This document shows, in pieces, positions 128 through 45,860 of a DNA stretch of 45,860 nucleotides. The position numbers and the translations under genes are program-made. How positions within the stretch are numbered: position 1 is the first letter of the stretch; every line of letters starts with the position of its first letter. This DNA comes from a virus. Below the pieces are notes generated by a model. It had not been told where the DNA came from. It searched no databases and saw nothing but the letters and a program-made list of their open reading frames with translations. The DNA lies in IMG/VR virus record IMGVR_UViG_3300027881_000001, positions 1-45,860 of that record, one strand, 5' to 3'.

Positions 128-1569
128 CCGTGGCCCCGGCTGACCGGCCTGAATGGTACATGAGTCATTACCCGGAAAAGGTTCCCGTCTTGGGCCATAT
201 TATAAGAATGGGTAACAGGAATTACGTAGAAACAATGAACATGATGATACAACTTGTTTGGGACAAGATAAGAACGCAAGATGTTCTAAATGGAGTGGAA
301 CCAACCAAGGCAGAACTGGGATTGCGCGGCAAATGGCTTATGTCTATGAGTGGTAGGCCGGAAATAGGTGGAGTGTTGGGAAAAAGAATTGCACCTATAT
401 CTACAGGGTTCTTCTTTTCGCCAAGGTTTGCCGTGTCGAGATTTACGTCGCCAATGTATCTGAGACATTTAGCGTCTGGCGACCCTGTTGCAAGGGCAGT
501 TGGCAAAAAAACAGCCGTTGCGTTTGCTTCATTTATAGGAACAAACATCGCCGCACTTGCACTTATGAAACTTGCGCTCGGCGATGATGTAACAATAGAA
601 CTTGACCCACGTTCTCCAGACTGGGGAAAGGGGAAAATTGGAACAACAAGAATAGATTTATGGGCTGGTTATCAACAGGCGGCAAGATTCTTAGTGCAGA
701 TGACTTTAGGCCAATATAAAACACAGGCCGGTGAAATTAAAGACGCAGAGAGGCTTGAAACTATTGGAAGATTTGTAAGAGGCAAAGAAAATCCTCTTGT
801 CTCGCTAATATCAGACTTGTGGGCAGGCAAAACGTATCAGGGCGACAGGCCATTCTCGCCGCCAAAGGGCGAGATGGGCAAGATATTAGACGGGCTTCAC
901 GTTCCCAAACTCATTCAAGGTGTTGGCAAAGAGGCATACCATAGGATGTTATTCCTTTGGGTTCAGGATTTTGCGGATGCGTCTAAAAACGATGGTTGGC
1001 CTATGGGCTTTGTTGCTGGTCCACTTTCGTTTTTTGGAACTAATACAGCATCTTATGAAGACACGGCTTTTACCAAACTCGCCAACTTCAAAAACAATAT
1101 TGCAGAAGCTGAACATGGCAAGCGATGGAAGGAACTAAATTCTTCTCAGCAAACAAGATTACTAAGAATGAACAAACAGGTAATTTCAGATTTGGAGTTG
1201 CAGGCCAAGGTAGAGGGCGCAAGAAGGGATGATTACGATTACGTTGGCAGGTTGATAGAGGACCAAAAGAAGGCAGGCGTAAAGGTTTATAAGAAGCTCA
1301 AGCCTGAGAACAAAAAACTTCTGGACGAGGCCGGAATATCTCTTGGCTTGGCCAGAAAAATAGGTGACTGGGAAATAGACAATAAGCGATATGAAAGGTA
1401 TCAGGAAATAACCGCCGAGATACTTGATGCCAAACTGTCGAGGCTGTCAGGCATGAATGGGTGGGAGAAGATACCGCTCAAGAGAAGGACGGCTAAGGTG
1501 GAAGGGGCTGTTCAGGCGTCCAAGGAAAAGGCGAAGGGTATGATGAGGCGGGAGGCAAAGGCCAAATGA
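1..1569 (+). CDS. C-terminal part of a wrap-around 1,106-aa internal virion (gp16-position) protein; the N-terminal part is at 43982-45860
   Basis: The frame is open from nt 1 (KKGLGAYKSEGLAK...). It is the same frame as the ORF starting at 43982 once the 45,733-bp period is applied. The track ORF 130..1569 is only the part after an internal GTG. Confidence 0.8.
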   Translation, partial: KKGLGAYKSEGLAKTVRAEYESSFYHKEAKKYVQFFEPAGTEAVAPADRPEWYMSHYPEKVPVLGHIIRMGNRNYVETMNMMIQLVWDKIRTQDVLNGVEPTKAELGLRGKWLMSMSGRPEIGGVLGKRIAPISTGFFFSPRFAVSRFTSPMYLRHLASGDPVARAVGKKTAVAFASFIGTNIAALALMKLALGDDVTIELDPRSPDWGKGKIGTTRIDLWAGYQQAARFLVQMTLGQYKTQAGEIKDAERLETIGRFVRGKENPLVSLISDLWAGKTYQGDRPFSPPKGEMGKILDGLHVPKLIQGVGKEAYHRMLFLWVQDFADASKNDGWPMGFVAGPLSFFGTNTASYEDTAFTKLANFKNNIAEAEHGKRWKELNSSQQTRLLRMNKQVISDLELQAKVEGARRDDYDYVGRLIEDQKKAGVKVYKKLKPENKKLLDEAGISLGLARKIGDWEIDNKRYERYQEITAEILDAKLSRLSGMNGWEKIPLKRRTAKVEGAVQASKEKAKGMMRREAKAK

Positions 1570-18505: not shown

Positions 18506-18510
18506 TTATA

Positions 18511-20795: not shown

Positions 20796-21231
20796 GGAAA
20801 AAGACAATTGCTGGAAGTCTTTTTCTAAGTATATCAGGATAAAGGGGTGTCTCGAAACAACAGGACTCCCGTTTGTTGGTATATGTATTACTTGTGAAAG
20901 GCAATTTCATATTGGGATGTTGGAGGCTGGCCATTTGATAGGCGGCAGAAAGAACTCGGTTTTATTTAGTGAAAAACTGGTCAATAATCAATGTACTTAT
21001 TGCAACCGAATCCAGCACGGAGAGTACAAAAAGTACAAAAAGGCTATGTGTAAAAGGTATGGCGAAGAACGGTTGGAGCGTTGGATTATTCGGCTCAAGA
21101 GAAGATTGATTGCTGACCGGAACATGGATTTTTCGGGTAGATGTAAAAGATATGGCCGCAAAATGGGAATTTTATTACGGCGGCATGGTTATAAAACATG
21201 GCGGGAATTATTACAAGAAGGCCAAAGTTGA
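20788..21231 (+). CDS. ninG: NinG/Rap-like recombination protein
   Basis: CITCERQF...EAGHLIGG...NNQCTYCNRIQHG pattern typical of lambda NinG. Confidence 0.65.
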   Translation: MAKEKDNCWKSFSKYIRIKGCLETTGLPFVGICITCERQFHIGMLEAGHLIGGRKNSVLFSEKLVNNQCTYCNRIQHGEYKKYKKAMCKRYGEERLERWIIRLKRRLIADRNMDFSGRCKRYGRKMGILLRRHGYKTWRELLQEGQS

Positions 21232-21564: not shown

Positions 21565-21920
21565 GCAAGATAACTCAACAGCAAGTAGAAAGCGCCTTAG
21601 AAAATGAATTTGACGGCTATCCCTTAGATTGTATTATTCAAGAGTTGTTGGAATTGCGAGAGCAGGCCCGCTGGATACCGGTCGGGGACAATAGTATTCC
21701 AAAACCTAATAGTATTGTCGAACTTTGTTGGAGGCCAAGTGATTACAAAGTGCATCCAAGCCATAGAGAGCTTGTCGTGGGTTCTTTTGTTTTTCGAGAT
21801 GTAACTGATAAGCCAGTTGAAATTCCCGTCCGAGTATGGGTAAATGGGAGATATTATGATATAAAAACACACATTACCCACTGGCGTTACGTAACATTAC
21901 CAAAGGAGACTGACGAATGA
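21561..21920 (+). CDS. Hypothetical protein (DUF551-like C-terminus)
   Basis: RWIPVGDNSIPKPNSIVELCW pattern. ATGA coupling. Confidence 0.45.
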   Translation: MSKITQQQVESALENEFDGYPLDCIIQELLELREQARWIPVGDNSIPKPNSIVELCWRPSDYKVHPSHRELVVGSFVFRDVTDKPVEIPVRVWVNGRYYDIKTHITHWRYVTLPKETDE

Positions 21921-22507
21921 AAAAGATACGCATTTTATTCTACAAGAGCAAGGTAGGCGACGGCCACTGGATAGATAACGGCATATCCTTGTGGACAAAA
22001 CTGTTTAATTGGCGAACTAAGAACTACAGCCACGTCGAGGTGTGGTGGGCTAATGAGAAGGGTAATTTTGAAGAGCCGGAGGTAGATGATGCCTATGACC
22101 CGACCGGTAAATGGGTTTTTGTCGGCCAATGCTTCACCTCTACCATGCGGGGCAAAGAGAACGGCACTGTCATAAGGGACGCCTCGGAAGTCCTGAAGAA
22201 TCCTGGGCGGTGGGATGTGGCGGAGATTGAAATAGTTAGCACCTTCCGCATTGGCCGCGCTAAGTTATATGCCGAGTTAGAAGCCAAAGAAAATAAGGGT
22301 TATGACAAGTTGTGTATTGCAGACTTTTTCAATCCTTTTCGCAGATGGATTCGGCTTCATGCAAAAGATAAGAATATCTGTTCTGAGGCAGGCGATAAGT
22401 TTTTGCTTTGGTGTGGGATTTTCTGTAAGTTGACACAGCCTTCTCCCCGCCGCCTGTCCCGCAAGCTGATAGAAAAGGGCTACAAAATAAGGCCGTTAAG
22501 GAGTTGA
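21917..22507 (+). CDS. Hypothetical protein; possible permuted papain-fold (His before Cys) enzyme
   Basis: YSHVEVW ... NICSEAGDKF. Weak. Confidence 0.5.
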   Translation: MKKIRILFYKSKVGDGHWIDNGISLWTKLFNWRTKNYSHVEVWWANEKGNFEEPEVDDAYDPTGKWVFVGQCFTSTMRGKENGTVIRDASEVLKNPGRWDVAEIEIVSTFRIGRAKLYAELEAKENKGYDKLCIADFFNPFRRWIRLHAKDKNICSEAGDKFLLWCGIFCKLTQPSPRRLSRKLIEKGYKIRPLRS

Positions 22508-28530: not shown

Positions 28531-30135
28531 ATGGATTTAACACCGAATGATGTAGCTTCAGTTAATGCTGCTTACTGGGCTGATTTGAACCTTATTCAGT
28601 TGCAGGCCGGGCGGTTTTCGTTCAAGGGCCATGAATATCAGAAGGAGCCTATGCAGTCCCGCGCCCGTCGCCGGGCCTACATGAAGGCTACTCAGGGCGG
28701 GTTTACGGAGATAGAGGTTCTTCGAAGTCTTCATGGCATGATACACAGGATTTTCCCGCAGGGCGTTTTATATACCTTTCCTACTACTGACGACGTGAAT
28801 GAGTTTAGTAAGTCCCGGTTCAATCCTTTAATCTTATCTAATCGTAAGGCGATAGGTCAGTTTGTCAAATCCGGCGGCAAGGGCACTGACACCGCATCAT
28901 TGAAGAAAATACATAATGCCTTTTTGTATCTTCGCGGTGCGCGTTTGAGCCAGAAGATTTCCGACCAGAACGAATCTTCCAAGATGAGAGGTATCCCGGT
29001 AGATTCTGTAAAATTTGATGAAGTTGACCTCATGGACGAGGATGTTATCGCCAAGGCCCGTGGCAGGATGGGCCATTCTAATGTAAAAGAAGAGGTATTT
29101 ATTTCCAACCCTCTTATCCCCGGCGAAGGTATAGATAAGATATTCGCCAACTCTGACCAGAGGCATTGGTTCAGAAAGTGCAGTTGCGGTGAGTGGACCT
29201 GTGCCGAACTCAGTTTCCCCGAATGCGTAAAGATAAAAGACGGAAAAGGATATATTGGCTGTAAGTGCGGCAAGGAGGTTCCAATTTACGCCGGGCCCGG
29301 CACCGCCGAGTGGGTTCCTTCTGTAAGAGAGAACTCGGACTTCATGCACGGGTACCGGTGGAGTCAGTTGACCTCTGCCTTCAACGACCCCGCCGAGATA
29401 CTGGATGCCTTTAACGACCCGCCCGAAGGAAACCTCGCCGATGTCTATCGACTGAGACTTGGCTTGCCTTATATCGCCGCAGAGGACAGATTGACCGAGG
29501 CGAATGTATATAACTGTTGCGGGACTTATATTCAGTCTCATACCCATACGGGCCCTTGTGCGATGGGCGTTGATGTCGGCAAGATTAAGCATGTACTCAT
29601 AGGGGTCAAGGTCGGCAGCGACCAGTACAAGATAGTTAAAATAGCTCAATTGAGCAGGTGGGAAGACATTCACGCGCTTGCGCGAAGGTTCAATGTTAAA
29701 AGTACGGTAGTTGATATAAGACCTTATGAAGACTCTGCAAGAAAGTTCCAGTCTGAAGTTAAGGGGCGGTGTTTTCTGTGTGAATACAAAGAGAACACCC
29801 CGCAGGGTACTGTTTATAACCAGAATACCGGGATAGTCAGTGTCAACAGGACGGAGATTTTCGATTTAACTCACAGAATGGTAATGACGCCGGGGATGCT
29901 GACTATTCCGATGCTGCATGAAGTGAAGGAATTTGCGAAACAGATGTGCGGGGCTTATAAGGTTCTTGAGACCAATAAGAAATCCGGCACCTCGATTTAC
30001 AGATATAAGGGCAAAAACGAACACTTCAGAAACGCCTTGAACTACTTCATATTAGCCGCAAAAGGCGGCCATATAGTAAGGGCCGAAGGTTACAGGAAAC
30101 CAACGACAGTAATAAATAATTATGCGAGGATATAA
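28531..30135 (+). CDS. terL: Terminase large subunit
   Basis: Walker-A-like KATQGGFTE and Walker B VKFDEVDLMDE. Size and position upstream of the portal fit. Confidence 0.85.
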   Translation: MDLTPNDVASVNAAYWADLNLIQLQAGRFSFKGHEYQKEPMQSRARRRAYMKATQGGFTEIEVLRSLHGMIHRIFPQGVLYTFPTTDDVNEFSKSRFNPLILSNRKAIGQFVKSGGKGTDTASLKKIHNAFLYLRGARLSQKISDQNESSKMRGIPVDSVKFDEVDLMDEDVIAKARGRMGHSNVKEEVFISNPLIPGEGIDKIFANSDQRHWFRKCSCGEWTCAELSFPECVKIKDGKGYIGCKCGKEVPIYAGPGTAEWVPSVRENSDFMHGYRWSQLTSAFNDPAEILDAFNDPPEGNLADVYRLRLGLPYIAAEDRLTEANVYNCCGTYIQSHTHTGPCAMGVDVGKIKHVLIGVKVGSDQYKIVKIAQLSRWEDIHALARRFNVKSTVVDIRPYEDSARKFQSEVKGRCFLCEYKENTPQGTVYNQNTGIVSVNRTEIFDLTHRMVMTPGMLTIPMLHEVKEFAKQMCGAYKVLETNKKSGTSIYRYKGKNEHFRNALNYFILAAKGGHIVRAEGYRKPTTVINNYARI

Positions 30136-30329: not shown

Positions 30330-30541
30330 TGCTTGCAGAACGACACTTCAAAAACGAAGACCCGATTAAGGACATGATTGCAAGGGCGCATCGGGTCGGG
30401 GCCTGTGATAGTTCCGGCAGGTCGGTTAAGCGGAGCGATGGGACGCTTGTCGCAAAGCCGCGCACCGGTTCATCTATGACTAAAACGTATGTTTTGCGCA
30501 ACGGAAAGGTTGTTGAGAAATGCCTGACGCAAGAGCAGTAG
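30329..30541 (+). CDS. Hypothetical small protein
   Basis: ORF within the operon. Confidence 0.4.
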   Translation: MLAERHFKNEDPIKDMIARAHRVGACDSSGRSVKRSDGTLVAKPRTGSSMTKTYVLRNGKVVEKCLTQEQ

Positions 30542-32145
30542 AAATAATCAAAGAGCAGGAGCGCGAAGAACAGAGCGCCTCTAACTTCCGTAATTTATAT
30601 CAGGAAGTCGCCGACCAGATGCTCCCGCGCGAGAACCAGATAACCAATTTCCGCACACCCGGTGAGGATAAGTCGAAGGAAATTTACGACCCTACCGCTA
30701 TGTTGGATTTGCAGGATATGGTGTCAGGTCTGTCGGCTGCGTTCTTTCCTTCCGGCGAGCTTTCGTTTGGTTTTACTGTAAAAGACAGACGTATTGCGAA
30801 CCTGGACCATGTTAAGAGGTACCTTGCGCTTGCGTCCCAGATTACACACGATGAGCTTTTTGCGGCCAATTTCATGTTACAGTTAAACGAGACGCTTTCT
30901 TCTTTGATAGGATTTGGTACTGGGAATTTGTTTTCTGAATGGAATATGGGTCTCAACTTCAAGGACTGGGATATATCTTTTTATACAATAAAGCAAAACA
31001 GCGCCGGGCTTGTGGATACTGTTATATTAAAATACCCACTCACTGCAAGGCAGGCCGTTCAGGAGTTCGGAGACAAGGCGGGCGAAAAGATTAGGCTCGC
31101 TATGGAAAAACCTGAAACCCAGTCGAAGAAGTTTTTCTTCATTCATCGTATAGGGCCGAGGGCGAAAAGGAACCGCAAGTTTTCTGATTTTTTGAATATG
31201 CCGATTGAATCTATATATGTAAACGTAGAAGAGCAGTTGATAGTTGACGAGGGCGGGTTTGAGGAATTCCCAAACGCGGTGCCGAGATGGAAGAAATCCT
31301 CGAACGAAAAATACGGGAGGGGGCAGGGAACTATAGCCCTGTCGGTGTCCAAAGAGTTACAGCAGATGCACGCCGATTTTATCGAATGCGGCAACAAGTG
31401 GAACAACCCGCCGAGAGAGGTTCTTTCGTCCGCCGTTGAGGGCAGGGTCGATGTGAGGCCTGGCGCGGATAACCGGGTTACGCAGATGAACTCTATAAAA
31501 TCACTCGACGACGGCGTAAAGGGAAATTTCAATATAACCGAAAAGTCATTTGAGTTCATACAGAATATAATTCATAGAATATTCTTCGTTGATGTATTCG
31601 CTCCGCTTGCAAACCTGCCGGGCGACAGGCGCACTACTACCGAAATCAGGGAAAGAATAAAACAGGCGTCGAAGAAACTTGCCAGTCCTATTTACAGGCT
31701 CTACAGTGAATTATTCACACCTGTTATTACAAGAAGCGCATTACTTTTAATTAGAAACGGGGTCATACCATATCCGCCCCCGGAACTTGAAGGTGCCGGG
31801 TTCGGGGTCGAGTACATTGGCGAGCTTGCGCTTGCAATGCGAGACCAGCAGACACAGGCGTTCAGGCAATTTGCGGGGCTTGTAACGGAACTTGACGCGG
31901 TATTTCCCGGCGCGAAAGATATTATAAATATCGACCGCGCTCTTCCTGATATTGCGTTTACTTATGGTACAAAGGTCGAACACTTATCAACTAAAGACGA
32001 AATCGACGCACAGAGAGAAGCGAGAGCCGCGCTGCAAGAGGCCAGGTTTGCGTTAGAGGCCGCGCAGTCCGGCGGACAGGCGTATCAGAGCGCTACAAAA
32101 GCGCCGGAGCGAGGTTCTCCGGCAGAGGCTATAATGGGAGCGTAA
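30520..32145 (+). CDS. Portal (T7-like head-to-tail connector)
   Basis: 541 aa. N-terminal pattern ...FRNLYQEVADQMLPRE...EIYDPTAMLDLQDMVSGLSAAFFP typical of podovirus connectors. Position fits. Confidence 0.8.
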   Translation: MPDARAVEIIKEQEREEQSASNFRNLYQEVADQMLPRENQITNFRTPGEDKSKEIYDPTAMLDLQDMVSGLSAAFFPSGELSFGFTVKDRRIANLDHVKRYLALASQITHDELFAANFMLQLNETLSSLIGFGTGNLFSEWNMGLNFKDWDISFYTIKQNSAGLVDTVILKYPLTARQAVQEFGDKAGEKIRLAMEKPETQSKKFFFIHRIGPRAKRNRKFSDFLNMPIESIYVNVEEQLIVDEGGFEEFPNAVPRWKKSSNEKYGRGQGTIALSVSKELQQMHADFIECGNKWNNPPREVLSSAVEGRVDVRPGADNRVTQMNSIKSLDDGVKGNFNITEKSFEFIQNIIHRIFFVDVFAPLANLPGDRRTTTEIRERIKQASKKLASPIYRLYSELFTPVITRSALLLIRNGVIPYPPPELEGAGFGVEYIGELALAMRDQQTQAFRQFAGLVTELDAVFPGAKDIINIDRALPDIAFTYGTKVEHLSTKDEIDAQREARAALQEARFALEAAQSGGQAYQSATKAPERGSPAEAIMGA

Positions 32146-33588: not shown

Positions 33589-34512
33589 ATGGCTGTTACC
33601 ATAGACCAGGTAACTTCCCAGAAGTTCGCTTCTGTGTTGTATCTACTCTCCCAGCAACAGGGTTCTAAAATGGCATCGAGGGTACGGAACGAATCTGTTC
33701 AAAGTGCCGAACTTGCGTATTTTGACACCCTTGCGGAAGACGACGATACTACACAGAAGACTGGCAGGCATCAGGGCACCTCTATTTCCGAGGCCGAGTT
33801 CGGCAGGAGAAGGGTAATACCTTATCCGTGGACGAACAAGAAGGCTTTGGATAAGGAAGACCTTGATAGAATGCTGCCAGACCCACGCAGTCCCGTAGCG
33901 ATGAACCAGGTCAGGTCGCTCGGGCGCAAAAAGGATGACCTGTTAATTACAGCGGCTTTGGGCAGCGCTTCTATCGGTAAGGCCGGTGGGAGTTCTGTTG
34001 ATTTTAAGGACGAGTCCGTGTCAATCAATGGCGACGGTACTGTAACTACTTTGGGCACACTTGCCGCGGTAGCGACTGTTGCCGATATATCTCTTGAGAA
34101 GATTCTGCTTATGATGAGGATATTCAATCAGGAAGATGTTGACCCTGACATTCCTAAACATTGGATGGTTACACCGAAGGCAATCGAAGACATGCTCAAC
34201 ATCACAGAATTGACCAGCTCGGATTATAACACTCTGAAGGCTTTGCAGAGAGGCAACTTTGAGGAAACTTTCGCCGGATTCAATTTCTTCTGGAGTAACA
34301 GGGTTACAAAAGACGCTGCTACTGAAACTGCTTATCGTTCAATCGCATGGGCGCAGGATGGATTAATCCTGGCCTCCATTGGCGACATTTCCACTCGAAT
34401 AGAAGAGGCTGAAAGACTCGATTACGCATGGGTACTCTTCTCGAAGATGGATTTGGGCGCCGTCAGAATGGAAGGCGTAAAAGTCCATGAATGCCTCAAT
34501 CAAGTGGCTTAA
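33589..34512 (+). CDS. Major capsid protein
   Basis: AAGGAG RBS. 307 aa. Position and T7 gp10-like N-terminal pattern. Confidence 0.8.
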   Translation: MAVTIDQVTSQKFASVLYLLSQQQGSKMASRVRNESVQSAELAYFDTLAEDDDTTQKTGRHQGTSISEAEFGRRRVIPYPWTNKKALDKEDLDRMLPDPRSPVAMNQVRSLGRKKDDLLITAALGSASIGKAGGSSVDFKDESVSINGDGTVTTLGTLAAVATVADISLEKILLMMRIFNQEDVDPDIPKHWMVTPKAIEDMLNITELTSSDYNTLKALQRGNFEETFAGFNFFWSNRVTKDAATETAYRSIAWAQDGLILASIGDISTRIEEAERLDYAWVLFSKMDLGAVRMEGVKVHECLNQVA

Positions 34513-35785: not shown

Positions 35786-35977
35786 ATGCCTGAAATAGAA
35801 GAGGAATGTGTTTTTTATACCCGCGCAGACCAGGTGCAGTTTAGGACATCGACTAATGGCGACCATCTGGTTATTAAAGGGTTTCGTTTGACTCAGGGAC
35901 AGGCCGCTACGCTTGCATGGCTAATCAACGAGGACGACAGTGCCCAGTTGGAATTTCAGATTAAGGTAAAAGAATGA
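35786..35977 (+). CDS. Hypothetical protein
   Basis: ORF within the operon. Confidence 0.45.
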   Translation: MPEIEEECVFYTRADQVQFRTSTNGDHLVIKGFRLTQGQAATLAWLINEDDSAQLEFQIKVKE

Positions 35978-36588
35978 ACAGTGTAACCTCAATATGCAAT
36001 ATGGCGCTTAGCGTAGTCGGCGCAAAGAGGATAAATGATTATAATACGGGTACTTCTTTGGGCGCAATACAGTGCAGACTCTTTTACGAACCGGCAAGAG
36101 ACGCCCTGTTAAGGTCTTACTGGTGGGGCTTTGCTTCCGACCGCGCGACGCTGTCGCAGGACACAAACGACCCCGATTTTGAGTGGGACAATCAGTTTAT
36201 TCTTCCGAGTGATTTTCTCAGGTTGAAATCTGTTTATGAGGAAGTCGGTTATAATTCACGAAGCAGCAGGCACGCTATTGAAGGGCAGAGGATTTTAACG
36301 AACGAATCAACACAAAACATCAGATATATCAAAAGAGTTACTGATGTTACAAAATTCGACCCGCTGTTCGTTAAGGTACTCGTTTTCCTGCTTGCGGATG
36401 ATTTCGTCGGGCCGCTTGCGGGTGGTGATAAAAGGATACAGGAAAAGATAGACAGGAAGCTCGCGAAGTTAATGCTGAAGGTTAGTGCGGTTAATGATAA
36501 TGAAACCGATACCGGTGGTAGAAGCGATTGGAATCTCGCGCGCCACGGCGGGCTTGGAGTGGCGGGCGAAGACGAAAGATACTGGTAA
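35974..36588 (+). CDS. Tail tubular protein A / adaptor (T7 gp11-like)
   Basis: ICNMALSVVGAKRINDY...CRLFYEPARDALLRSYWWGFA pattern. Position fits. Confidence 0.6.
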   Translation: MNSVTSICNMALSVVGAKRINDYNTGTSLGAIQCRLFYEPARDALLRSYWWGFASDRATLSQDTNDPDFEWDNQFILPSDFLRLKSVYEEVGYNSRSSRHAIEGQRILTNESTQNIRYIKRVTDVTKFDPLFVKVLVFLLADDFVGPLAGGDKRIQEKIDRKLAKLMLKVSAVNDNETDTGGRSDWNLARHGGLGVAGEDERYW

Positions 36589-37034
36589 TGGCGCATGAAA
36601 TAAGATTTGGCTATGCCCTTGATAAGACTCTCTGGGCCGCGGTTTTTAAGAACGACGGCGGTACGTTCAAGGTAAATATAACCGGAGGCGATACATGGGA
36701 GGCATGGGCCGACGCCAATATTGCAACTTACGACATATCTTTATCGGAAGGCGCGGGCGGCGGGACATATACAGCGACATTCCCGGTCATTGCGGCTGGT
36801 ATTTATCATGTAACCGTCTATGAAGGTTCGGTTGCGGCAACTGACCCGCCGGTTGGTCATGGCGAGATGGATTGGGACGGCACCGCCGAAGTGAATAATA
36901 CCGCCATTAAAACTTATATACTTTCAGATGTTATAGGTGATGACGGTGATACACTTGAGGTCCTGTCCGACCAGATGGACGCCCTGTCCGCCTCAAGTAC
37001 GGCAACGCTTAACGTGTACGGAGAGGGAGAATGA
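36588..37034 (+). CDS. Hypothetical structural protein
   Basis: Refined start MAHEIRFGYALDK (overlaps the upstream TAA). Confidence 0.5.
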   Translation: MAHEIRFGYALDKTLWAAVFKNDGGTFKVNITGGDTWEAWADANIATYDISLSEGAGGGTYTATFPVIAAGIYHVTVYEGSVAATDPPVGHGEMDWDGTAEVNNTAIKTYILSDVIGDDGDTLEVLSDQMDALSASSTATLNVYGEGE

Positions 37035-39544
37035 ACTATCCTATAATATCGCTTAACGCGGGCAAGTTGACGCCGTTAATAGATGCGCGGACCGATACGG
37101 AGAAGTATTCTTCCGGCTGTAGAATCCTCCAGAACATGATACCGCGTATTTACGGGCCGGTAGAAAGACGACCGGGCACTCTCTACAGGGCGGGGTGTAG
37201 TGATAATGATGTAAAATCAAGAGTTGTTTCATTTATCTATTCAGCAACAATCGCTTATGTCCTTGAATTTTCAGACCAGATTATCAACGTTTATTATAAC
37301 GGCTCTATCGTAGATGCCGATATAGTTTCCCCGTATCTTGAGGCGGACCTTTTTCAGTTACAGTTTAAGCAGTCCGCGGACGTGATGTGGATTACACATC
37401 CTTCTTATAATCCGAGAAAACTTTCAAGGGTGTCTGCATCTGAGTTTTCGCTTGATAAGATTGTATTCGAGACCGGCCCTTTTATAGAACGGAACGATAT
37501 AGCCAACGACGACGACGTTACTATCGCCGTTACCGGATATACTGTAGCAACCGCCACGGCTGGCGCGGCGGGTGTTGGTAACTTTACAATGACAAGCGCG
37601 ACAGATATATCAAGCCTGTTTCCCGCGAATAAAAGATTTTATATTACAAATTCAACCGGGAACGACGGCGCTTATACGGTTCACGCGGATACCGCCACTG
37701 ATTATACCGGTACGACTTTAACGATATATGCAAACGAGGCGATAGCCGACGGCACCAACGACGGCCAAATAATGGTAAGCGGCGGGGTCGTAACGCTTAC
37801 CGCATCTTCTGCAACGTTTACTACAGGAACGTCCGGGCATACAGATTCGTTATTTAAACTTACTCATAAAAGGGAGCAGACGGTTACAAAAGGTTCTGCT
37901 GTGGCCACTGGGGTTATAGGTGAGGCGATAGATGTTAAGGGCAGCTGGTCATTCACTACTCACGGCAACTGGGAGGCGACCGTTGAAATACAGCGGATGG
38001 AAGATGGGACCAATTGGGAGACGTTCAGGACATATACTTCGGTAATAACCGGAGGGGTAAGTTCGAGGAATATACAAAAATCCGATACGGAAGAGGCTGA
38101 TGGCGTTCAATACAGAATAAACTGTACCTCATATACAAGTGATAGAGTTCACGCGGATTTTGTAGTAGATGAGAGTACTCAGGATAGTGTTTTCAAGATA
38201 ACCGCGGTAGCGTCAACTACGTCCGCCACAGCAACCGCAATAATCCCGGCAAATGAACATGACGCCACAAAGCGGTGGGCCGAAGGCGCATGGTCTAATG
38301 TAAGGGGTTGGCCGTCTTCTATTACGTTTTTTGAAGAAAGGGCGGTTTACGGGTTCACTAACTCTGACCCGCAGGATATTTATCTTAGTAGGTCAGGTGA
38401 TTTTGAAAACTTCTCCGCGGGCATTCTCGATGATTCGGCGTTTACACTAACCCTGCCTACCGCAAACAGGGGTAGATGGCTCGGCTCGCTTGAAGTGCTG
38501 GCGGCTGGTACTACGGGCGGAGAATGGCGGATACGGTCGTCGGCACTCGATGAGCCGCTCACTCCGACTAATTGGAGCATGAAAGAACAGACAACATCCG
38601 GCAGCGCGGATATTCAGGCGATGGAAGTTAATGAGGCGATTATATTTGTAGATTACGTTGCTCGAAAGGTAAGAGAATTTACATGGTCAGACCAGAAACA
38701 GAAATACGTTTCACCGGACCTTACCGCTCTTGCGGAAAGCATAACATCCGGTGGTATAACAAGTATGGCCTTTCAGAAGAATCCCGATTCTATTCTGTGG
38801 TTTACAATATCTGACAGCCCGTATTTAATATCAATGACGTATGAGCGCGAACAGAATGTAGTTGCGTTTGCAGACCATCCGCTTGGCGGGAATGGTATTG
38901 CGGAGTCGGTATGTGTAACTCCAAGCACTGACGAGGATGTAATTACCCTGACCGACCAAAGAACAATAGACGGCTCTACTGTAAGATATATCGAAGAGAT
39001 GCAGCCGAGAGATTTTGGTTCTACAACAGACGCTACTGACGCTTTTTTTGTTGACTGCGGAATAATAGACGAGGGCGGAGACGTTACCGTAGAAGTGGCG
39101 CATCTTGAAGGGGAGACTGTGTTAGTTCTCGGCGACGGCGCGGTGCAAACATCGAAGACTGTATCTAACGGTGTGATAACAATTGATAAGGCGGTTGACA
39201 AGGCGATAGTTGGGCTGTCGAGTACATACCAGGTGTCTCCAATGAGGATGGACTTTAACACGCCCGCAGGGACTACTCAGGGAAGTATCAAAAAAACTTC
39301 AGAAATGGTGATAAGTTTCCATGCAACAGGCGGCGCGCAATATGGAGACGATACTGATACTTACGATATAGACTGGCGAACTACCGAAGATTACGACTCT
39401 CCATACGAATTGTTTACAGGAGACAAAACCGTTGTATTTGACGGCGGGTTCAGTACAGAAGACAATATAATAATTTCCGGTTCCGGCCCGTTGCCGTGTA
39501 CGGTTCGGGCAATAATCCCAAGAATAGAAAAGACAGGAAGATAA
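37031..39544 (+). CDS. Tail tubular protein B / nozzle (T7 gp12-like)
   Basis: 837 aa. N-terminus ...LNAGKLTPLIDARTDTEKYSSGCRILQNMIPRIYGPVERRPGT. Position fits. Confidence 0.65.
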   Translation: MNYPIISLNAGKLTPLIDARTDTEKYSSGCRILQNMIPRIYGPVERRPGTLYRAGCSDNDVKSRVVSFIYSATIAYVLEFSDQIINVYYNGSIVDADIVSPYLEADLFQLQFKQSADVMWITHPSYNPRKLSRVSASEFSLDKIVFETGPFIERNDIANDDDVTIAVTGYTVATATAGAAGVGNFTMTSATDISSLFPANKRFYITNSTGNDGAYTVHADTATDYTGTTLTIYANEAIADGTNDGQIMVSGGVVTLTASSATFTTGTSGHTDSLFKLTHKREQTVTKGSAVATGVIGEAIDVKGSWSFTTHGNWEATVEIQRMEDGTNWETFRTYTSVITGGVSSRNIQKSDTEEADGVQYRINCTSYTSDRVHADFVVDESTQDSVFKITAVASTTSATATAIIPANEHDATKRWAEGAWSNVRGWPSSITFFEERAVYGFTNSDPQDIYLSRSGDFENFSAGILDDSAFTLTLPTANRGRWLGSLEVLAAGTTGGEWRIRSSALDEPLTPTNWSMKEQTTSGSADIQAMEVNEAIIFVDYVARKVREFTWSDQKQKYVSPDLTALAESITSGGITSMAFQKNPDSILWFTISDSPYLISMTYEREQNVVAFADHPLGGNGIAESVCVTPSTDEDVITLTDQRTIDGSTVRYIEEMQPRDFGSTTDATDAFFVDCGIIDEGGDVTVEVAHLEGETVLVLGDGAVQTSKTVSNGVITIDKAVDKAIVGLSSTYQVSPMRMDFNTPAGTTQGSIKKTSEMVISFHATGGAQYGDDTDTYDIDWRTTEDYDSPYELFTGDKTVVFDGGFSTEDNIIISGSGPLPCTVRAIIPRIEKTGR

Positions 39545-39545
39545 A

Positions 39546-41606
39546 ATGGCGGTTTCAAATCAAACAAATAGAATATCGGCCACAGGAAGTGGTTCGGCTG
39601 GACAGGAAGTGGATTTTGTATTTCCAGTAACCGCGTCAAGTGATTTGCTGGTAATTATGCGAGTTACGGCCACCGGAGTTGAAACAGAGTTTACCGAGAA
39701 TTCTGATTATACAGTAGCGGACCCGGACGGCGGCGTTGACCCGACTGCCGACTGGTCTTCTGGCGGAACGGTTACCACTGTTACTGCGGTTACTGCTGCG
39801 CAGCAAATCCACATTATACGAGATACTCCAATGACCCAAACGCTCGACCTTGAATCCGGTGATGATTTCAGTTCTACAGACATAGAGGCCGCTATTGACC
39901 GAAATACAAGATTGATTCAGGAAAACTCCGACACTAACAGCAGGATATTGAGATTTCCAAACACTGACCCAACGACTGCTTTTGGGGAATTAGACAATTC
40001 AGTGGACAGGGCGGGTAAGTATTTGTATTTCGATTCCTCTACCGGCGCGCCTACAGTGGCCTCGGAAACAGATTCTCTTACCACGACCGTTAGTTCTTTT
40101 ATGGAAACAGTTTTAGATGATACAAGTGCCGCCGCCGTCAGGGCGACACTGGGTGTATCTGCGGTGTTTAATGTTAAAACTTACGGCGCAGTCGGGGATG
40201 GCGCGACCGACGACACTGCCGCCATCAAATTAGCCATAGCCGCCGCCGCCGCCAATCAGGGTTCGGGTTCGCTTGGCAGCGGGAATTTCCCAACAAGTGA
40301 AATTGGCGGAATAGTTTATTTCCCGCCCGGCAGGTATCTTATTACTGATACTTTGGATATTACAGAAGGTATTTATCTTGTTGGTAACGGCAAGTACGCA
40401 TCTACTATCTATAATACCGGCTCAGGCGTGCCTGCTATTAAGTTTGCTAACTCAGGCCGGTCATCTTCAGAGTCTTTCGGCGGTGCAAGAAATCTTAAAA
40501 TACTTGGTGGCAGTAGTGCCGATGCCGGGGCCTACGGCATAGAAGTTAATGTAGTTCATTATCTTGATTTCGAGAACCTGCTTATAATGGACCACGGTGA
40601 CAGTGGTATATATGTCCATGCACTTACCGTTGGCGGAAATTATAGAAACGTTTATTCATATACCAACCGCGGGGATGGTATTGAGTTCGAGAACCTTACT
40701 ACTTCGACTGCGCATAATTTCTATAGCTGTCAGTTCAGGGTAAATGATGGTATAGGTATAAATCTCGCTGGCACAAAACATACTTTCCATGGTACTGTAT
40801 CAGAGTCTAACGGCGGGATAGGTGTAGTTGCTCAATCTTCTACAAGAAATTGTACATTCTATGATTTGTATCTTGAGAACAATGAAATAACCGCCACTAC
40901 AACCTCTGTCCAGATGGAGATAAATGGCCATAATAGTCGATTCTATAATACGTTTGTAAACGCCGCCGATGGTATAATTAAAATAGTTTCAGGGGGAGTT
41001 TACAGCCACTTCTACAGTACTGCCGTCGCTGATAACAGTGGTGCGGCGAATTTTCAGATAGATAGTGGCGCCACGCACAATCTTTTGATAATGACCGCAT
41101 CTTCCACGGCCTTGGTTTTAACTAATAACGGCGGCGAAAGTAACCGAAGAATTGACAACAGTTATATGGCAATCATAGAAGATTTTACTCTCGGCGGCAA
41201 TATTATAGCTACCGGCAGCGATGAATTAGAAATAGACCATACTTCCACCGACCAGTATATCAGGGTTTCGGGCGGCGATGTCGGTGCCGGTGGCCAGATT
41301 ATCCTTTACGGCGATGCCCACGCAAATGCCAGCCAGGTTGCGGTAACCGCCGCTGGTGGCGCGACTATAACTGCTGATGGCGGCACTACAATAGACCAGT
41401 CTTCCGCTTCCGGGGCCGTTCCCGTTCTCAAACTTGACCAGGCCGATATAGATGATTCTTTCGTGGATATTGTCGGCACTTCCGCCGCCGATGGTACAAG
41501 GAGTATATCTTCTGACACAACCGAAGAAGGCGCTAAATTCGGCGCATTCAGGGTCGAGATAAATGGTGTAACAAAATGGATAAGGGTCTATGACGACCAT
41601 TCATAA
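39546..41606 (+). CDS. Tailspike/tail fibre with a pectate-lyase-type beta-helix (depolymerase candidate)
   Basis: FNVKTYGAVGDGATDDTAAIKLAI, then many beta-helix coils. Confidence 0.8.
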   Translation: MAVSNQTNRISATGSGSAGQEVDFVFPVTASSDLLVIMRVTATGVETEFTENSDYTVADPDGGVDPTADWSSGGTVTTVTAVTAAQQIHIIRDTPMTQTLDLESGDDFSSTDIEAAIDRNTRLIQENSDTNSRILRFPNTDPTTAFGELDNSVDRAGKYLYFDSSTGAPTVASETDSLTTTVSSFMETVLDDTSAAAVRATLGVSAVFNVKTYGAVGDGATDDTAAIKLAIAAAAANQGSGSLGSGNFPTSEIGGIVYFPPGRYLITDTLDITEGIYLVGNGKYASTIYNTGSGVPAIKFANSGRSSSESFGGARNLKILGGSSADAGAYGIEVNVVHYLDFENLLIMDHGDSGIYVHALTVGGNYRNVYSYTNRGDGIEFENLTTSTAHNFYSCQFRVNDGIGINLAGTKHTFHGTVSESNGGIGVVAQSSTRNCTFYDLYLENNEITATTTSVQMEINGHNSRFYNTFVNAADGIIKIVSGGVYSHFYSTAVADNSGAANFQIDSGATHNLLIMTASSTALVLTNNGGESNRRIDNSYMAIIEDFTLGGNIIATGSDELEIDHTSTDQYIRVSGGDVGAGGQIILYGDAHANASQVAVTAAGGATITADGGTTIDQSSASGAVPVLKLDQADIDDSFVDIVGTSAADGTRSISSDTTEEGAKFGAFRVEINGVTKWIRVYDDHS

Positions 41607-42017
41607 ATGAAGCTCAGGGAATCGACAATAGAAGACATAGAATATGTGGCGGAGCGTACCGCAAGTCGTGGTATACACAAAGATATGCCCGGACAAATAG
41701 ATTATTTTTATACTCTTGAGCATGAAGGAAGGCCGTTGGGTATAGGCGCGTTTAAGTTAATAAATCTTTTTACCGCATGGTGCTGGCTTGATACGACTAA
41801 GGAATCACGAAAACATACCCCCGCTGTCTATAGGATAATGAGTGAATGGATGGGCATATTTACTGAAGAACATGGAATCAAAAGGTTGCAGGCTTATGTC
41901 GAATGTGATTTTCCGGAAGCTATTCGACTGGTTGAGCATTTAGGTTTCAAGAAAGAAAGTACAATGAAAAAATTTATGGGCGATAAGGATGCGTTTATGT
42001 TTGCGAGGACGATATAA
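41607..42017 (+). CDS. GNAT-family N-acetyltransferase-like protein
   Basis: 136 aa. ...RLQAYVECDFPEAIRLVEHLGFKKES... typical of a GNAT C-terminal motif. Confidence 0.55.
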   Translation: MKLRESTIEDIEYVAERTASRGIHKDMPGQIDYFYTLEHEGRPLGIGAFKLINLFTAWCWLDTTKESRKHTPAVYRIMSEWMGIFTEEHGIKRLQAYVECDFPEAIRLVEHLGFKKESTMKKFMGDKDAFMFARTI

Positions 42018-42523
42018 TGGCACAAATTGCACAAGTCGTATTGCTTGCGGCGTCAACTACTGCATCTGCCGCCGCCTCCTATAAGCAATCTCAGCAGGCT
42101 CGCGCACAGGCCCGGACACAACAGCGAATGATGAACTATCAGGCCAAGGTTGAAGAGCGTGAGGCCGAGATGGCGAAGGCAAAGGCCCAATTTGAACAAA
42201 AAAGACAGTCTCAGGCCGCGGCGCGAGAGAAAGGTGCCTTAATTGCAAGTCTGGCTAAAGAGGGCGGGTTAGGTTCTCCTGTGGCCGCGGATTTATCTGG
42301 TGAGCAGGCCTCGGAGCTTGAACTTGAAAATCTTCTTATAGGATATGAAGGCGAAGCGGCGGCAAAGAGAAGGATGTCTCAGGCCGCCCTTGATAGGATG
42401 CAGGGAAGAATTTATAAGCAGCGTGGCAGGGACGTAAGTTCCGCGAGGCAATGGCAGGCTGGGGCGTCCTTGCTTCAGGGCTTTGGCACTGCTTCTATGG
42501 CTGCCGGGGGTGGATATGGCTAA
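42017..42523 (+). CDS. Internal virion protein (gp14-position), Ala/Gln-rich
   Basis: Hydrophobic N-terminus plus coiled-coil. Called by position. Confidence 0.5.
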   Translation: MAQIAQVVLLAASTTASAAASYKQSQQARAQARTQQRMMNYQAKVEEREAEMAKAKAQFEQKRQSQAAAREKGALIASLAKEGGLGSPVAADLSGEQASELELENLLIGYEGEAAAKRRMSQAALDRMQGRIYKQRGRDVSSARQWQAGASLLQGFGTASMAAGGGYG

Positions 42524-43985
42524 ATTTCCGATTAGACGCACAGAAAGAACTATATCAGGCAGGGGTGCGGCTGTTCGCGCCAATATAGATGTTGATACCG
42601 GCCATGCCGCTCTCGGCGAGGCGCTGAAAGATGTTGGCTCTGCTATCACTGGCGTTGCCACTCAATTTGCACAGAAATCCAAAAGACAAAGAGAGATGGA
42701 GGAAAGGCTTGCCGCCGAACGCCAGCAGAGGCTTGATACGAGGTCGAAAATAGCCGCCGAGGCTGTTATTAAAAGGGCGGAGATAGAACATGACGGTTTT
42801 AAGAAAGAAAACGCCGACACGTCTCTGTGGGAGAAAGATTTTCAGGACAGAATGGCGATTGCAAGGCAAGAGATAGATGGTCTTGATATGTCGGACGATG
42901 CCCGTCTTTTAGTGGGGGCGAAGTTCGAGAGCCGCCTAATGACAGGAGAATCGACAACTTTAGTCGATACGACTTTGAGGGAAAGCGAAGATACAAAAGA
43001 GGCGGCTGACGGCGCCCTTGTAAATGCCATCGTTGGCGGCGACCCGGATGCGATAAAGGAGGCCACTGGTTTATGGCAGGATGCTTACGCAGGAACAATG
43101 GATAAGGCCGAACAAAAGGCTTTGTTCGAAGAGTTGTCAAGGAAGGCACTGAATATGAGGGGTGATGCGGCGGTTGAGGCGGTACACGCAGCGGTTAAGG
43201 CTAATAATTTTGGGGCGGCAAGGGTTTTGGTTGACAATCCCGATATACCAGAATCAAAACAAACTACGCTTAGGGGCACGATAGACTCCAAGGAGTTGCT
43301 GGCATTTGAAAACAACTTAAATGACAGTCTTATTGGAATAGACAATGCGCCAGATATGTCTCAGTCAGATTTTGATATGCAGGCAATAAAGTTAAAGGAC
43401 TCGATTACTGCCTCTAATGTGCCGGGCGCTAACAAGAAAAAACTGCTTGCAGATTTAGAGAGATGGAGAAGGGGTACTGGGGAAGTTGATTATGCCAAGG
43501 TGCTTTCCTTGAATCAGGAAATGGACGCTGCGCAGAGGTCGGGAATAGTTGACCCGACAATAGAAACAAGAATTATGCGGGCCAACCTGGAGGGTGCGTT
43601 TGGCGGCAGGAATAAGGGCGGGCAAAAAACTTATGCAGATATGATAAGGCGGTTCAAGAAACTTGAATTTGACGAGAGGTTGCAGGCAATCGCTCCAATT
43701 GTGAGTGCGTTTGCAAGAGAAAATTCATACGACCCCGAACTTGTGTTCCTGTTTAATCAAGCCAAGAATAAGGTTGTTGCCGAGAATCCAGATGCTGACA
43801 CTAAAGATTTATTTATCAAGGTAAGCGCTCTTGCCGAATCGTATGGTATACTTCCGCCCGATGTGGTATCGGCTCGTCTTAGACAGAAGCCAAAGACTGT
43901 ACTAATGAAATCGCCGGAAGGAATATCGTATCATGTTCCCATAGATAAGAAACAAAAATTCCTCGACAATGGGTACACTGAATGA
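42516..43985 (+). CDS. Internal virion protein (gp15-position)
   Basis: Refined start MAKFPIRRTE (ATG 42516). Helical, 489 aa. Confidence 0.55.
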   Translation: MAKFPIRRTERTISGRGAAVRANIDVDTGHAALGEALKDVGSAITGVATQFAQKSKRQREMEERLAAERQQRLDTRSKIAAEAVIKRAEIEHDGFKKENADTSLWEKDFQDRMAIARQEIDGLDMSDDARLLVGAKFESRLMTGESTTLVDTTLRESEDTKEAADGALVNAIVGGDPDAIKEATGLWQDAYAGTMDKAEQKALFEELSRKALNMRGDAAVEAVHAAVKANNFGAARVLVDNPDIPESKQTTLRGTIDSKELLAFENNLNDSLIGIDNAPDMSQSDFDMQAIKLKDSITASNVPGANKKKLLADLERWRRGTGEVDYAKVLSLNQEMDAAQRSGIVDPTIETRIMRANLEGAFGGRNKGGQKTYADMIRRFKKLEFDERLQAIAPIVSAFARENSYDPELVFLFNQAKNKVVAENPDADTKDLFIKVSALAESYGILPPDVVSARLRQKPKTVLMKSPEGISYHVPIDKKQKFLDNGYTE

Positions 43986-45860
43986 TATTTGACCCAGAAA
44001 AGGAAGGTGCGGCTAAAACTTTCGACCCGCTTAACGAAGGCGCCATAGCGGTAGAGGACAGGCCGCTAACTCCCCTCGCCCCTGACGAGGCCACCAAGAA
44101 GGCCGAGAATATTTGGGATATATCTGGTGATATTGGCGTATCAACAGACGTAATACGCCAGCACTACAATACCATAATGGAAATCCCTGACCCAGACGAC
44201 GTTCCTGTTGGTATCAATGCTCCTGCCCCAAAGGTTCCAGACGAAAAACCTTACGAAGAGATGCAGTTTGCAAGGGCCCCCAAGGATGTATGGCAAATCA
44301 CCGCTTGGGGAATTCGTGTACCTGGATTAAAAAAGTTCTTTAGGTCTGACCGACAACCGTTGCCTCCAGATGCAGGCAGGATGGAGAAGATTGACAGGGG
44401 TTTTGATATTGCCACCAGAACACCGCTTCGGACTTTCCTTAAATTTGCGAATGGCCGACTTTTTGGCTTGGGCGATTTAATGTGGGCTGGAATAAAAAGA
44501 ATAACCCCGCAGGATATGTGGGATGATGAAGTAAGGAAGATGACGCTCACCGAGGCTATGGACTGGTCTGCTGGCTATAATCCATCCGGTTTTTCTAAAA
44601 CAGTGGGGGAGATGGCTGAATTTATTGGAAGGATACAAACAGCAAAAAGTATCGGGGTTAAAACAGGATTCTTGGAGAAGTTGCCAAAAGGCACTTTGAT
44701 AAAAGCATGGGAGACCGCAAAGTTATTTGGGGCTGCTGCAACCGCCGAGCAAATATCCAAAGCCGCGTCCGAGAAGATTGACCCGACCGAAACAGAATAC
44801 GGCTATGAAGGCCCGAAGGCCGTTCTAAGGGATATGGCAATCGGGGCCGCATTGAGCATGGCTACGTCCGGCGTTAAGGCGGCGTGGGCGAAACTTGCCC
44901 CGAACGAACAGACGCGCGCCTTAAAGGTTCTCGGTCTTAAAAAGGGTGCAACTAACGCAGAGATAAAAAGTGCGGCAGTAAAACTTGCCAAGCAGTACCA
45001 TCCCGACAAAGCCAAGGGTTTCGTGTCTGAGTTCAAAGAAGTGATGAAGGCCCGCGACACGCTCATTCCCGGCAAGGATGTTGTCTTTCGCGGCCAGCCG
45101 ATAAAGATTACTCCGAAACTTATTACTGGCGAGGTTTTAGGAAAGCCAATAAAGCCGAAAGCGCCGAGCATCAAAACTCTTACCAAGAAAGCCCTTACTG
45201 AACTCGGCAAAGCAGAGCGGCCAAGAGAGATAATTGAGGCAGCTAAGACGTTAGAACTTGGCAAACGTGCCGCCCGTAGTGCCGCCGCCGCTGAACGGGC
45301 CGCGGGCGCGGAAAGGCTTACGTCCGCACTTGGCCAACTGAAGGGCGAGTTGACAGAATACAAGAACCCGGATTTCACCCCGCTAAAAGAAACTATGGCG
45401 AATAAAGATATAGATGCACTCCATGACGACATCTGGGCTCGGCCACATACTGAAGACCACTTTTCTAAAATCAACACTGCAAAGGCTTGGTCCAAGGTGG
45501 TTGAGGGTTTTGTTCCTACAAGGGGCGAAATAATTCTATTAGAAAAACAGTGGGGTAAAGAGTTTGCCAAGGGTCTTTTGCGAAGGCTTCCTTTGGGCGA
45601 TAAGGCGTGGGACACCGCCGCAGATATAAGTAACTTTATGAGGACAATGTTGGCAGGTGGTGATGTGAGTGTTGCGGGAAGACAGCTTCGTGTGCTTGGT
45701 CAACTATATCCAAAAGAGTACGGCGTGGCAATCAAAAAAGGTCTTGGTGCCTACAAAAGCGAAGGCCTTGCTAAAACTGTTCGCGCAGAGTATGAATCAT
45801 CTTTTTATCACAAAGAAGCCAAAAAATACGTCCAGTTCTTTGAGCCAGCTGGAACCGAGG
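43982..45860 (+). CDS. N-terminal part of the wrap-around 1,106-aa internal virion (gp16-position) protein, containing a J-domain (about 44912-45070)
   Basis: ATGA coupling at 43982. I translated the frame by hand to the window end without finding a stop. Contains LKVLGLKKGATNAEIKSAAVKLAKQYHPDKAKGFVSEFKEVMKARDTL. Confidence 0.8.
   Translation, partial: MIFDPEKEGAAKTFDPLNEGAIAVEDRPLTPLAPDEATKKAENIWDISGDIGVSTDVIRQHYNTIMEIPDPDDVPVGINAPAPKVPDEKPYEEMQFARAPKDVWQITAWGIRVPGLKKFFRSDRQPLPPDAGRMEKIDRGFDIATRTPLRTFLKFANGRLFGLGDLMWAGIKRITPQDMWDDEVRKMTLTEAMDWSAGYNPSGFSKTVGEMAEFIGRIQTAKSIGVKTGFLEKLPKGTLIKAWETAKLFGAAATAEQISKAASEKIDPTETEYGYEGPKAVLRDMAIGAALSMATSGVKAAWAKLAPNEQTRALKVLGLKKGATNAEIKSAAVKLAKQYHPDKAKGFVSEFKEVMKARDTLIPGKDVVFRGQPIKITPKLITGEVLGKPIKPKAPSIKTLTKKALTELGKAERPREIIEAAKTLELGKRAARSAAAAERAAGAERLTSALGQLKGELTEYKNPDFTPLKETMANKDIDALHDDIWARPHTEDHFSKINTAKAWSKVVEGFVPTRGEIILLEKQWGKEFAKGLLRRLPLGDKAWDTAADISNFMRTMLAGGDVSVAGRQLRVLGQLYPKEYGVAIKKGLGAYKSEGLAKTVRAEYESSFYHKEAKKYVQFFEPAGTE
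45734..45860. repeat. Second copy of the terminal overlap (= nt 1-127)
   Basis: Direct comparison of the two ends. Confidence 0.9.

Follow-up and report, generated by a model that had tools for sequence, protein, structure and literature searches.

We describe here a J-domain located within a 1,106-amino-acid (aa) protein encoded on the DNA of a virus (IMG/VR virus record IMGVR_UViG_3300027881_000001, positions 1 to 45,860); the whole stretch of 45,860 nucleotides (nt) that was analysed is called the window. The window begins and ends with the same 127 bases (an exact direct repeat, 1-127 versus 45734-45860), which are the overlap that arises when a circular or terminally redundant genome is assembled. 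Because the ends are identical, the window corresponds to a circular contig with 45,733 unique bp, whose G+C content is 47%, and the overlap has to be discounted in ORF (open reading frame) or repeat counts spanning the window ends. The ORF encoding the J-domain is on the + strand and runs without a stop from 43982 to 45733 (codons 1-584), its ATG overlapping the stop of the upstream ORF that ends at 43985, and continues from 1 to 1569 (codons 585-1106, i.e., 522 codons, and the stop at 1567-1569), the frame being kept across the duplicated ends; positions 45734..45860 are the duplicate of 1-127 and not additional coding sequence. When the duplicate is removed, the product has the length of 1,106 aa given in an earlier note made on this DNA from its letters alone, and an identical 1,106-aa protein (P0001) is present in a public protein collection.

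The J-domain occupies aa 311-362 (44912..45067, + strand) and consists of a short helix I, helix II, the HPD loop and helix III. The earlier note had recognised these last three elements in the peptide LKVLGLKKGATNAEIKSAAVKLAKQYHPDKAKGFVSEFKEVMKARDTL, which is in frame at nt 44921-45064, and had placed the HPD tripeptide (H340 P341 D342) exactly where the translation and the family alignment put it, at 44999..45007; its statement that the domain lies in the middle of the protein has to be corrected, because aa 311-362 of 1,106 belong to the first third. The profile search and the structure prediction that the note had proposed as checks both gave positive results. PF00226 was matched with E = 4.7e-10 and 39.9 bits against a gathering score of 27.8 (aa 315-361 aligned to profile positions 4-53 of 63), the isolated J segment reached 44.7 bits, and the same family was matched by 28 of 32 relatives. 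A profile built from the segment and 34 homologues matched 56 distinct solved J-domain sequences, Sec63 among them; the best match was DNAJA1 (E = 6.8e-11), and E. coli DnaJ and the DnaJ chain of its complex with DnaK (5nro_B) were matched with E = 1e-7 and E = 2.6e-7, respectively. The AlphaFold model of aa 290-400 has three helices with the HPD between II and III (helix II, model residues 36-49; helix III, 59-72), and its J core has a block-mean pLDDT of about 77-87. In a Foldseek search of this model against PDB, the best 50 matches were all J-domains, with probabilities of 0.99-1.00 and root mean square deviations (rmsd) of 0.8-2.2 Å over 45-58 residues, and the superposition on 5nro_B gave a target-normalised TM-score of 0.69 with an rmsd of 1.1 Å; the Foldseek E-values are merely 0.02-0.3 because the J-domain is short. 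Three independent tests, namely Pfam, the solved-structure profile and the predicted fold, therefore confirm that aa 311-362 form a genuine J-domain, and the segment, with its profile match, HPD and fold in agreement, is a member of the J-domain family (PF00226).

The domain is a compact one. In the model, helix I is short and helix IV, a feature not universal among J-domains, is absent; the loop from the HPD to helix III is three residues shorter than that of E. coli DnaJ, with whose H33-P34-D35 the HPD is aligned. Helix II has the basic residues K329, K334 and K337, and the position equivalent to DnaJ K26 is V in this protein and R in most relatives. Directly after the domain comes a weakly predicted hairpin, DVVFRGQPIKIT.

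The whole protein is a mosaic, composed of a helical N-module, the J-domain fused to it, a hairpin and linker, and a helical C-module of about 710 aa. The conserved N-module (aa 100-312; 44279..44917, + strand), for which neither a Pfam nor a PDB profile match was found, ends in a weakly hydrophobic helix of small residues (aa ~277-303; hydropathy of 1.17 at aa 280-298) that abuts the J-domain. A DVVFRGQxIxxxPKL beta-hairpin, whose strands are modelled with low confidence, and a Pro/Lys-rich linker follow at aa 363-394 (45068..45163, +), and the BLAST segments show that the N/J unit meets the C-module here. The C-module starts at 45164 (aa 395-584 up to 45733, + strand; the rest at 1-1566) and is common to the proteins P0002-P0014, which are 63-78% identical over aa ~395-1106 and differ in their N-terminal parts. 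About 38 proteins of 790-1,850 aa share the region of aa ~30-390, J-domain included, at 40-65% identity in BLAST; most of them have a C-terminal part without BLAST similarity to the C-module, and a few share a short stretch that matches aa ~410-530. Within the C-module lies the sole strongly hydrophobic helix of the protein, a transmembrane-like segment at aa 755-779 (TAVAFASFIGTNIAALALMKLALGD; 511..585, + strand, translation checked; Kyte-Doolittle value of 1.74 over 19 residues), which is part of a long model helix at aa 746-780. The C-module had no match in PDB profiles, Pfam, PHROG or cultured-phage records; a PHROG search of the whole protein gave only J-type matches, and the J-domain was the sole Pfam family. 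The full-length AlphaFold model is almost all helical with a mean pLDDT of 65.5, and no meaningful match to it was found among PDB folds (best E = 1, probability <= 0.06).

An important question is whether the J-domain is maintained in related proteins. When the N-module profile (aa 100-312) was searched against 1.84 billion cluster representatives, 92 representatives, all large proteins, were matched, and the counts given here rest on the 82 that are untruncated and thus scorable. A J-domain with an intact HPD begins within a few residues of the N-module end in 29 of the 82, and further proteins are present inside the clusters of these 29; a J-like segment with a degenerate tripeptide (e.g. 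YQPGT, YRPDR, YAPDK, YSPDQ) was found in eight. When 67 J segments of the family were aligned with E. coli DnaJ, H33 was retained by 58 of them, P34 by 66, D35 by 62, the K that follows by 60 and the F47 equivalent by 61; there is almost no variation in the HPDK motif, the F47 equivalent and the hydrophobic core. LSPEK replaces YHPDK in the closest full-length relative (P0002), which is 67% identical to our protein over the N-module, 61% over the linker and 77% over the C-module but just 33% over the J region, whereas HPD-keeping relatives with N-module identity of 68-69% have J identity of 67-71%. Since the J region decays where the HPD has been lost and the flanks are kept, the J sequence is constrained only while the HPD is present, and because the constraint is tied to the HPD, a function related to Hsp70 is favoured over that of a mere spacer. 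Judged from these aligned relatives, the J-domain has been selectively maintained. We also noted proteins in which the HPD has been lost and J-like sequence kept (P0002, P0046, P0047, P0061, P0070, P0074, P0079, P0086, P0094, P0109 and P0137), with the variants LSPEK, YRPET, YQPGT, YRPDR, NRPNA, YKPSQ, YSPDQ, YAPDK and TYTDN; the losses appear to be independent.

The gene order around the ORF is that of a block of structural genes, all on the + strand. The PHROG scan assigned the terminase large subunit (28531-30135), portal (30520-32145), major capsid protein (33589-34512), tail tube A (35974-36588), tail tube B (37031-39544) and tail fibre (39546-41606), the last three, a block at 35974..41606, being labelled from phrog_394, phrog_376 and phrog_1640. 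There follow a 136-aa protein in the gp13 position (41607..42017; phrog_308 'internal virion protein', E = 1.5e-6, and phrog_4177), a gp14-like internal virion protein of 168 aa (42017..42523; phrog_418 'internal virion protein', E = 1.8e-12) and a gp15-position protein of about 489 aa (42516..43985), which was assigned by synteny with 470-499-aa proteins in relatives; this last protein is 40-55% identical to its counterparts in two related contigs (L006 and L007) and had no family match. The mechanical ORF of the gp15-position gene begins at a TTG (42483), and an ATG at 42516 (MAKFPIRR...) lies just before the stop of the gp14-like gene at 42523; the latter is more likely the true start. From 37031 to the ORF with the J-domain, consecutive genes abut or overlap, so that their co-transcription as a late structural operon is likely; a promoter/terminator scan near the 3' end gave results no better than those for shuffled sequence. 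The order is kept in five related contigs (L001/L002, L003, L004/L005, L006 and L007), where the fibre gene is followed by one or more small proteins, a gp14-position protein of 142-179 aa, a 470-499-aa protein and then the big protein. The gp14-position protein, two genes upstream of the big protein, matches PF24072 (T7_gp14) in L001-L003, and the 168-aa protein of the window is homologous to these gp14-family proteins.

Directly downstream of the structural block are a 266-aa family-2 glycosyltransferase (GT2; 1820-2620) and a 701-aa protein (2587-4692) with an N-terminal GT2 and a C-terminal region resembling S-adenosylmethionine-dependent methyltransferases (phrog_21658), for which the Pfam methyltransferase matches were below the curated cut-offs. 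The related contig L006 has a 1,370-aa GT2 and methyltransferase protein upstream of its fibre gene. A possible role of these gene products is modification of virion proteins, of DNA or of glycans on the host surface.

The earlier note had placed the ORF at the position of T7 gp16, and this placement, after the gp14-like and ~490-aa gp15-position genes, is correct; homology to T7 gp16 was not found. The hhalign comparison with T7 gp16 gave probabilities below 1% (0.08% for the C-module and 0.30% for the N-module), and fold searches revealed no significant gp16-like match, the match to a 'protein inside capsid D' in BFVD, a collection of predicted viral structures, having E = 0.18 and a probability of 0.09. 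Because neither sequence nor fold homology was found, the label 'gp16' is used here in a positional sense only. The note had also recognised no lytic transglycosylase domain, and our scans agree, as neither Pfam at E <= 1 nor PHROG revealed any SLT or lysozyme family in the 1,106-aa protein; with both homology and this domain wanting, the protein is not a member of the T7 gp16 family. An SLT-like motif that was suspected at the C-terminus of one relative (P0056) was dropped, the Pfam search being empty for P0053-P0060. By tail tube B, the nearest cultured relatives are pelagiphages of the HTVC010P type (about 37% identity); HTVC010P was considered as a comparator and set aside, no similarly large ORF following the tail tube genes in its annotated region.

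A different kinship became apparent from the domains of the related proteins. For 'polyvalent' proteins, packaging into the virion and injection along with the DNA have been predicted from architecture and context (Iyer, Burroughs, Anand, de Souza and Aravind, 2017; PMC5512222). Relatives bearing the J-domain also carry LPD38 (3 of 32; 158.8 bits in P0036), ART-PolyVal, GNAT or GemA, and in P0005 an ART-PolyVal domain (aa 396-495) occupies the same junction just before the C-module; ART-PolyVal, GNAT and LPD38 on sibling proteins are marks of such injected proteins. Foldseek against BFVD gave 11 matches at E <= 1e-3, all of them large phage proteins, and several are annotated as LPD-containing, PolyVal ADP-ribosyltransferase or MuF-C; the LPD and PolyVal-ART matches had E-values of 1e-5 to 6e-4, the structures as a whole superposing poorly. 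Upstream of the ORF, and on its strand, are the genes for terminase, portal, capsid and tail, a virion and packaging neighbourhood of the kind in which polyvalent proteins are encoded. In the 1,106-aa protein itself, Pfam found none of the hallmark LPD or PolyVal domains and recognised the J-domain only; it is the homologues sharing the N/J unit that add LPD38, GNAT, ART-PolyVal and GemA, and by their domain content the membership of these homologues in the polyvalent class is clear.

We propose that the ORF encodes a large internal protein, of the core or ejection type, of an uncultured podovirus whose structural genes follow a T7-like order, and that its J-domain is a DnaK-recruiting module delivered by the virion; to this reading as a whole we give about an even chance. 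The J-protein would be made late and packed into the capsid core, and at the next infection it would be ejected by way of the tail, as would the proteins of the gp14 and gp15 positions. The small three-helix J-domain would refold on the cytoplasmic side, and its HPD loop and helix II would dock on host DnaK in the ATP-bound state and trigger ATP hydrolysis, upon which DnaK would clamp nearby unfolded segments, most plausibly those of the ejected protein itself. An Hsp70 recruiter would thus be present where the genome enters, ahead of all phage gene expression; as the product of a late gene, the J-domain could act early only via the virion. The benefit may be extraction or refolding of the ejected protein, or an early diversion of DnaK as by the phage J-protein Rki (PMC3486835). 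We infer packaging, ejection, cytoplasmic exposure and action on DnaK from sequence-level evidence.

If the J-domain is indeed delivered, the phage would control the central chaperone of its host from the start of infection, before transcription, and this would, if true, give an answer to how ejected proteins that pass the tail unfolded are extracted and refolded. The phage J-proteins in the searchable literature are stand-alone and made after infection, and injected polyvalent proteins have been catalogued as enzyme carriers; new here is a conserved Hsp70-activating module within a protein that gene order places in the ejected capsid core. The family is not a one-off, with its 29 HPD-intact representatives, and its natural HPD-loss variants are built-in controls; the J segment is small and directly assayable although the phages are uncultured. 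Information of this kind should be of interest to specialists of phage entry and of chaperones.

There is a bolder form of this proposal, which we consider unlikely: the J-domain, at the cytoplasmic mouth of the channel that the ejected core proteins build, would load DnaK onto the unfolded chain as it emerges, and ATP-driven ratcheting by Hsp70 would pull the ejection protein in, possibly together with the leading genome end bound to it. Internalisation in T7 is enzyme-driven, and an entry motor of the present kind would, if true, be a host-powered alternative to it, and a viral outside-in counterpart of import by Sec63-BiP and Pam18-mtHsp70.

Several observations weigh against a virion-delivered DnaK recruiter and have to be considered together. 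No homology to T7 gp16 and no solved-structure match beyond the J-domain were found, and a tblastn search of 50,697 phage records gave nothing at E <= 1, whether the query was the complete protein or its C-module; since no cultured relative was matched, packaging and ejection are read from gene order alone. The J-domain is absent from 45 of the 82 scorable N-module representatives, and, as these 45 and the eight with a decayed HPD indicate, the J module is dispensable; among 27 proteins with the C-module, PF00226 was matched by our protein alone. If ejection placed the J-domain in the periplasm, it would lack an Hsp70 partner there, and a J-domain made late might just as well be active in the producing cell. 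This last point can be developed into the main rival explanation, which we regard as possible but less probable than delivery: the J-domain would be a handle in cis for assembly, recruiting DnaK onto its own chain while the large, metastable and partly hydrophobic protein is made late in infection, and DnaK would keep this chain soluble or unfolded until it enters the procapsid core. The location of the gene within a late structural operon is consistent with such a role, as are the constant fusion of the J-domain beside the weakly hydrophobic end of the N-module, the low-confidence all-helical model of the remainder, which is typical of conformationally plastic core proteins, and the loss or decay of the J-domain in many relatives, as expected for an accessory folding aid; for DnaJ-domain proteins of jumbo phages, too, recruitment of host Hsp70 in the service of folding and assembly has been predicted (PMC7824862). 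However, siblings with the same C-module (63-78% identical) exist that have no PF00226 match, and the slot that holds the J-domain is occupied in relatives by host-directed enzymes (ART-PolyVal), which points to a role after injection. The two timings could both be true, the same domain serving in the producing cell and as an ejected effector.

The virion itself is dispensed with in an explanation that we hold to be improbable, according to which the product is a non-structural protein encoded after the tail genes, for host takeover or of the membrane, and a conventional type III J-protein. The PHROG, PDB, hhalign, tblastn and fold searches revealed no homology to experimentally verified virion proteins, and the next genes downstream are those for the glycosyltransferase and methyltransferase and not structural ones, both of which speak for this explanation; but its start overlaps the stop of the gp15-position gene, its position right after the T7_gp14-family protein is conserved in all relatives examined, and its size, helicity and module swapping match those of internal or ejected and polyvalent proteins. 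It may finally be asked whether the segment is a J-like relic, a helical spacer that no longer engages Hsp70, since eight representatives have a degenerate HPD in J-like sequence, helix IV is missing, and our protein has V where most of the family has R at the K26 equivalent of DnaJ. This is very improbable in our judgement, because the HPD is intact in our protein and in the 29 representatives, the HPDK motif, F47 equivalent and core are near-invariant, the domain scores above the curated Pfam threshold, and the contrast in P0002 between a J region of 33% identity and flanks of 61-77% ties the constraint to the function of the HPD.

We add here observations on the rest of the genome that concern its replication and host. 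A lambda-style replication module is composed of an initiator or 'replisome organizer' (18493-19221), a DnaB-like helicase (19175-20530) and a NinG/Rap endonuclease (20788-21231), and exonucleases are encoded at 15410-16300 and, on the minus strand, at 8784-9707. Initiation of lambda-type replication is classically dependent on DnaK and DnaJ, and this dependence may be relevant to a J-domain carried by the phage. No DNA or RNA polymerase family was matched among the larger ORFs scanned, none of which is big enough for a T7-type RNA polymerase; since no polymerase was matched, the phage probably depends on host enzymes. In the replication/early region, a 196-aa product (21917-22507) was assigned to phrog_1128 (enoyl-CoA hydratase or crotonase-like), whose category is host takeover or auxiliary metabolic gene. 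Two phage-sized GTDB genome contigs of 34 and 38 kb with HPD-intact J proteins (L011, CAZBMW010000024.1; L012, CAZMWN010000002.1) have been binned into metagenome-assembled genomes labelled 'uncultured Pirellulales bacterium', and of the relatives with the C-module P0006 is labelled Planctomycetota; another relative is labelled Methylococcaceae. These labels give a weak hint of a host in Pirellulales or Planctomycetota, binning of phage contigs being unreliable.

Comparison with known systems should begin with Rki (ORF 057w) of the T4-like phage RB43, the first functional J-domain protein found to be encoded by a phage; it is soluble, has an early promoter and early transcripts, and hijacks host DnaK through its J-domain (PMC3486835). 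Like Rki, our protein is a phage J-domain protein without a zinc-finger or client-binding domain and is not a generic co-chaperone of the DnaJ type. The interaction of Rki with DnaK depends on the HPD and benefits the phage, and a corresponding action on DnaK is predicted here. Unlike Rki, which stands alone, is soluble and is made early, the present protein has its J-domain at an internal position of 1,106 aa and belongs to a late tail/core operon; outside the J-domain no kinship with Rki was seen, no dedicated test having been made. We infer that it would work like a type III J-protein, and like Rki. The statement of the earlier note that known phage J-proteins are small and stand-alone accords with Rki (PMC3486835) and with the 194-aa DnaJ of Pseudoalteromonas phage vB_Pun_Y3, which was rejected as a counterpart, being a stand-alone gene and not a virion protein. 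The cultured phages with J-domains similar to ours mostly have genomes of 137-595 kb, and the genes are annotated as 'DnaJ', 'chaperone' or 'hypothetical protein', several records being unannotated; their stand-alone status is taken from annotation, with one size checked (194 aa). A J match in 'Pseudomonas phage Y6' (L009, OQ572408.1, UNVERIFIED) was discarded: it lies in a bacterial dnaK-dnaJ-dapB-carA region and is no phage gene, and this stretch indicates that the 'phage' record contains host chromosomal DNA. In the searchable literature, we found no paper describing a J-domain within an internal virion or ejection protein.

Polyvalent proteins resemble ours in being large, encoded among virion genes and built of swappable modules. 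They differ in that their effectors are enzymes, whereas a co-chaperone module would recruit a machine of the host and needs no enzymatic activity of its own; the main text of the survey, which covers 131 domains, contains no mention of DnaJ, J-domain, Hsp70 or DnaK (PMC5512222). As in the case of T7 gp16 (internal virion protein D) of the gp14-gp15-gp16 ejectosome, the ORF comes last in a block downstream of the tail tube genes in which gp14-family and gp15-position proteins are also encoded, is the largest gene there, and has a large and mostly helical product; unlike T7 gp16, it has no detectable homology to that protein (hhalign, 0.1-0.3%), no fold match and no lytic transglycosylase domain. 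The record of T7 gp16 describes an internal virion protein with an endolysin domain and no J-domain, as read from its annotation alone, the sequence being unscanned.

Membrane-tethered J-proteins act at translocons, such as Sec63 with BiP and Pam18/Tim14 with mtHsp70, and bacterial DjlA is also tethered to the membrane. Our protein resembles these in that its J-domain adjoins a hydrophobic or membrane-associated segment and that the protein as a whole would belong to, or pass, a membrane conduit, although the flanking helix is here only weakly hydrophobic (1.17). By analogy with Sec63 and Pam18, Hsp70 would ratchet the emerging unfolded chain; but unlike in Sec63, Pam18/Tim14 and DjlA, the J-domain would sit on the translocated protein itself, arriving from outside the cell.

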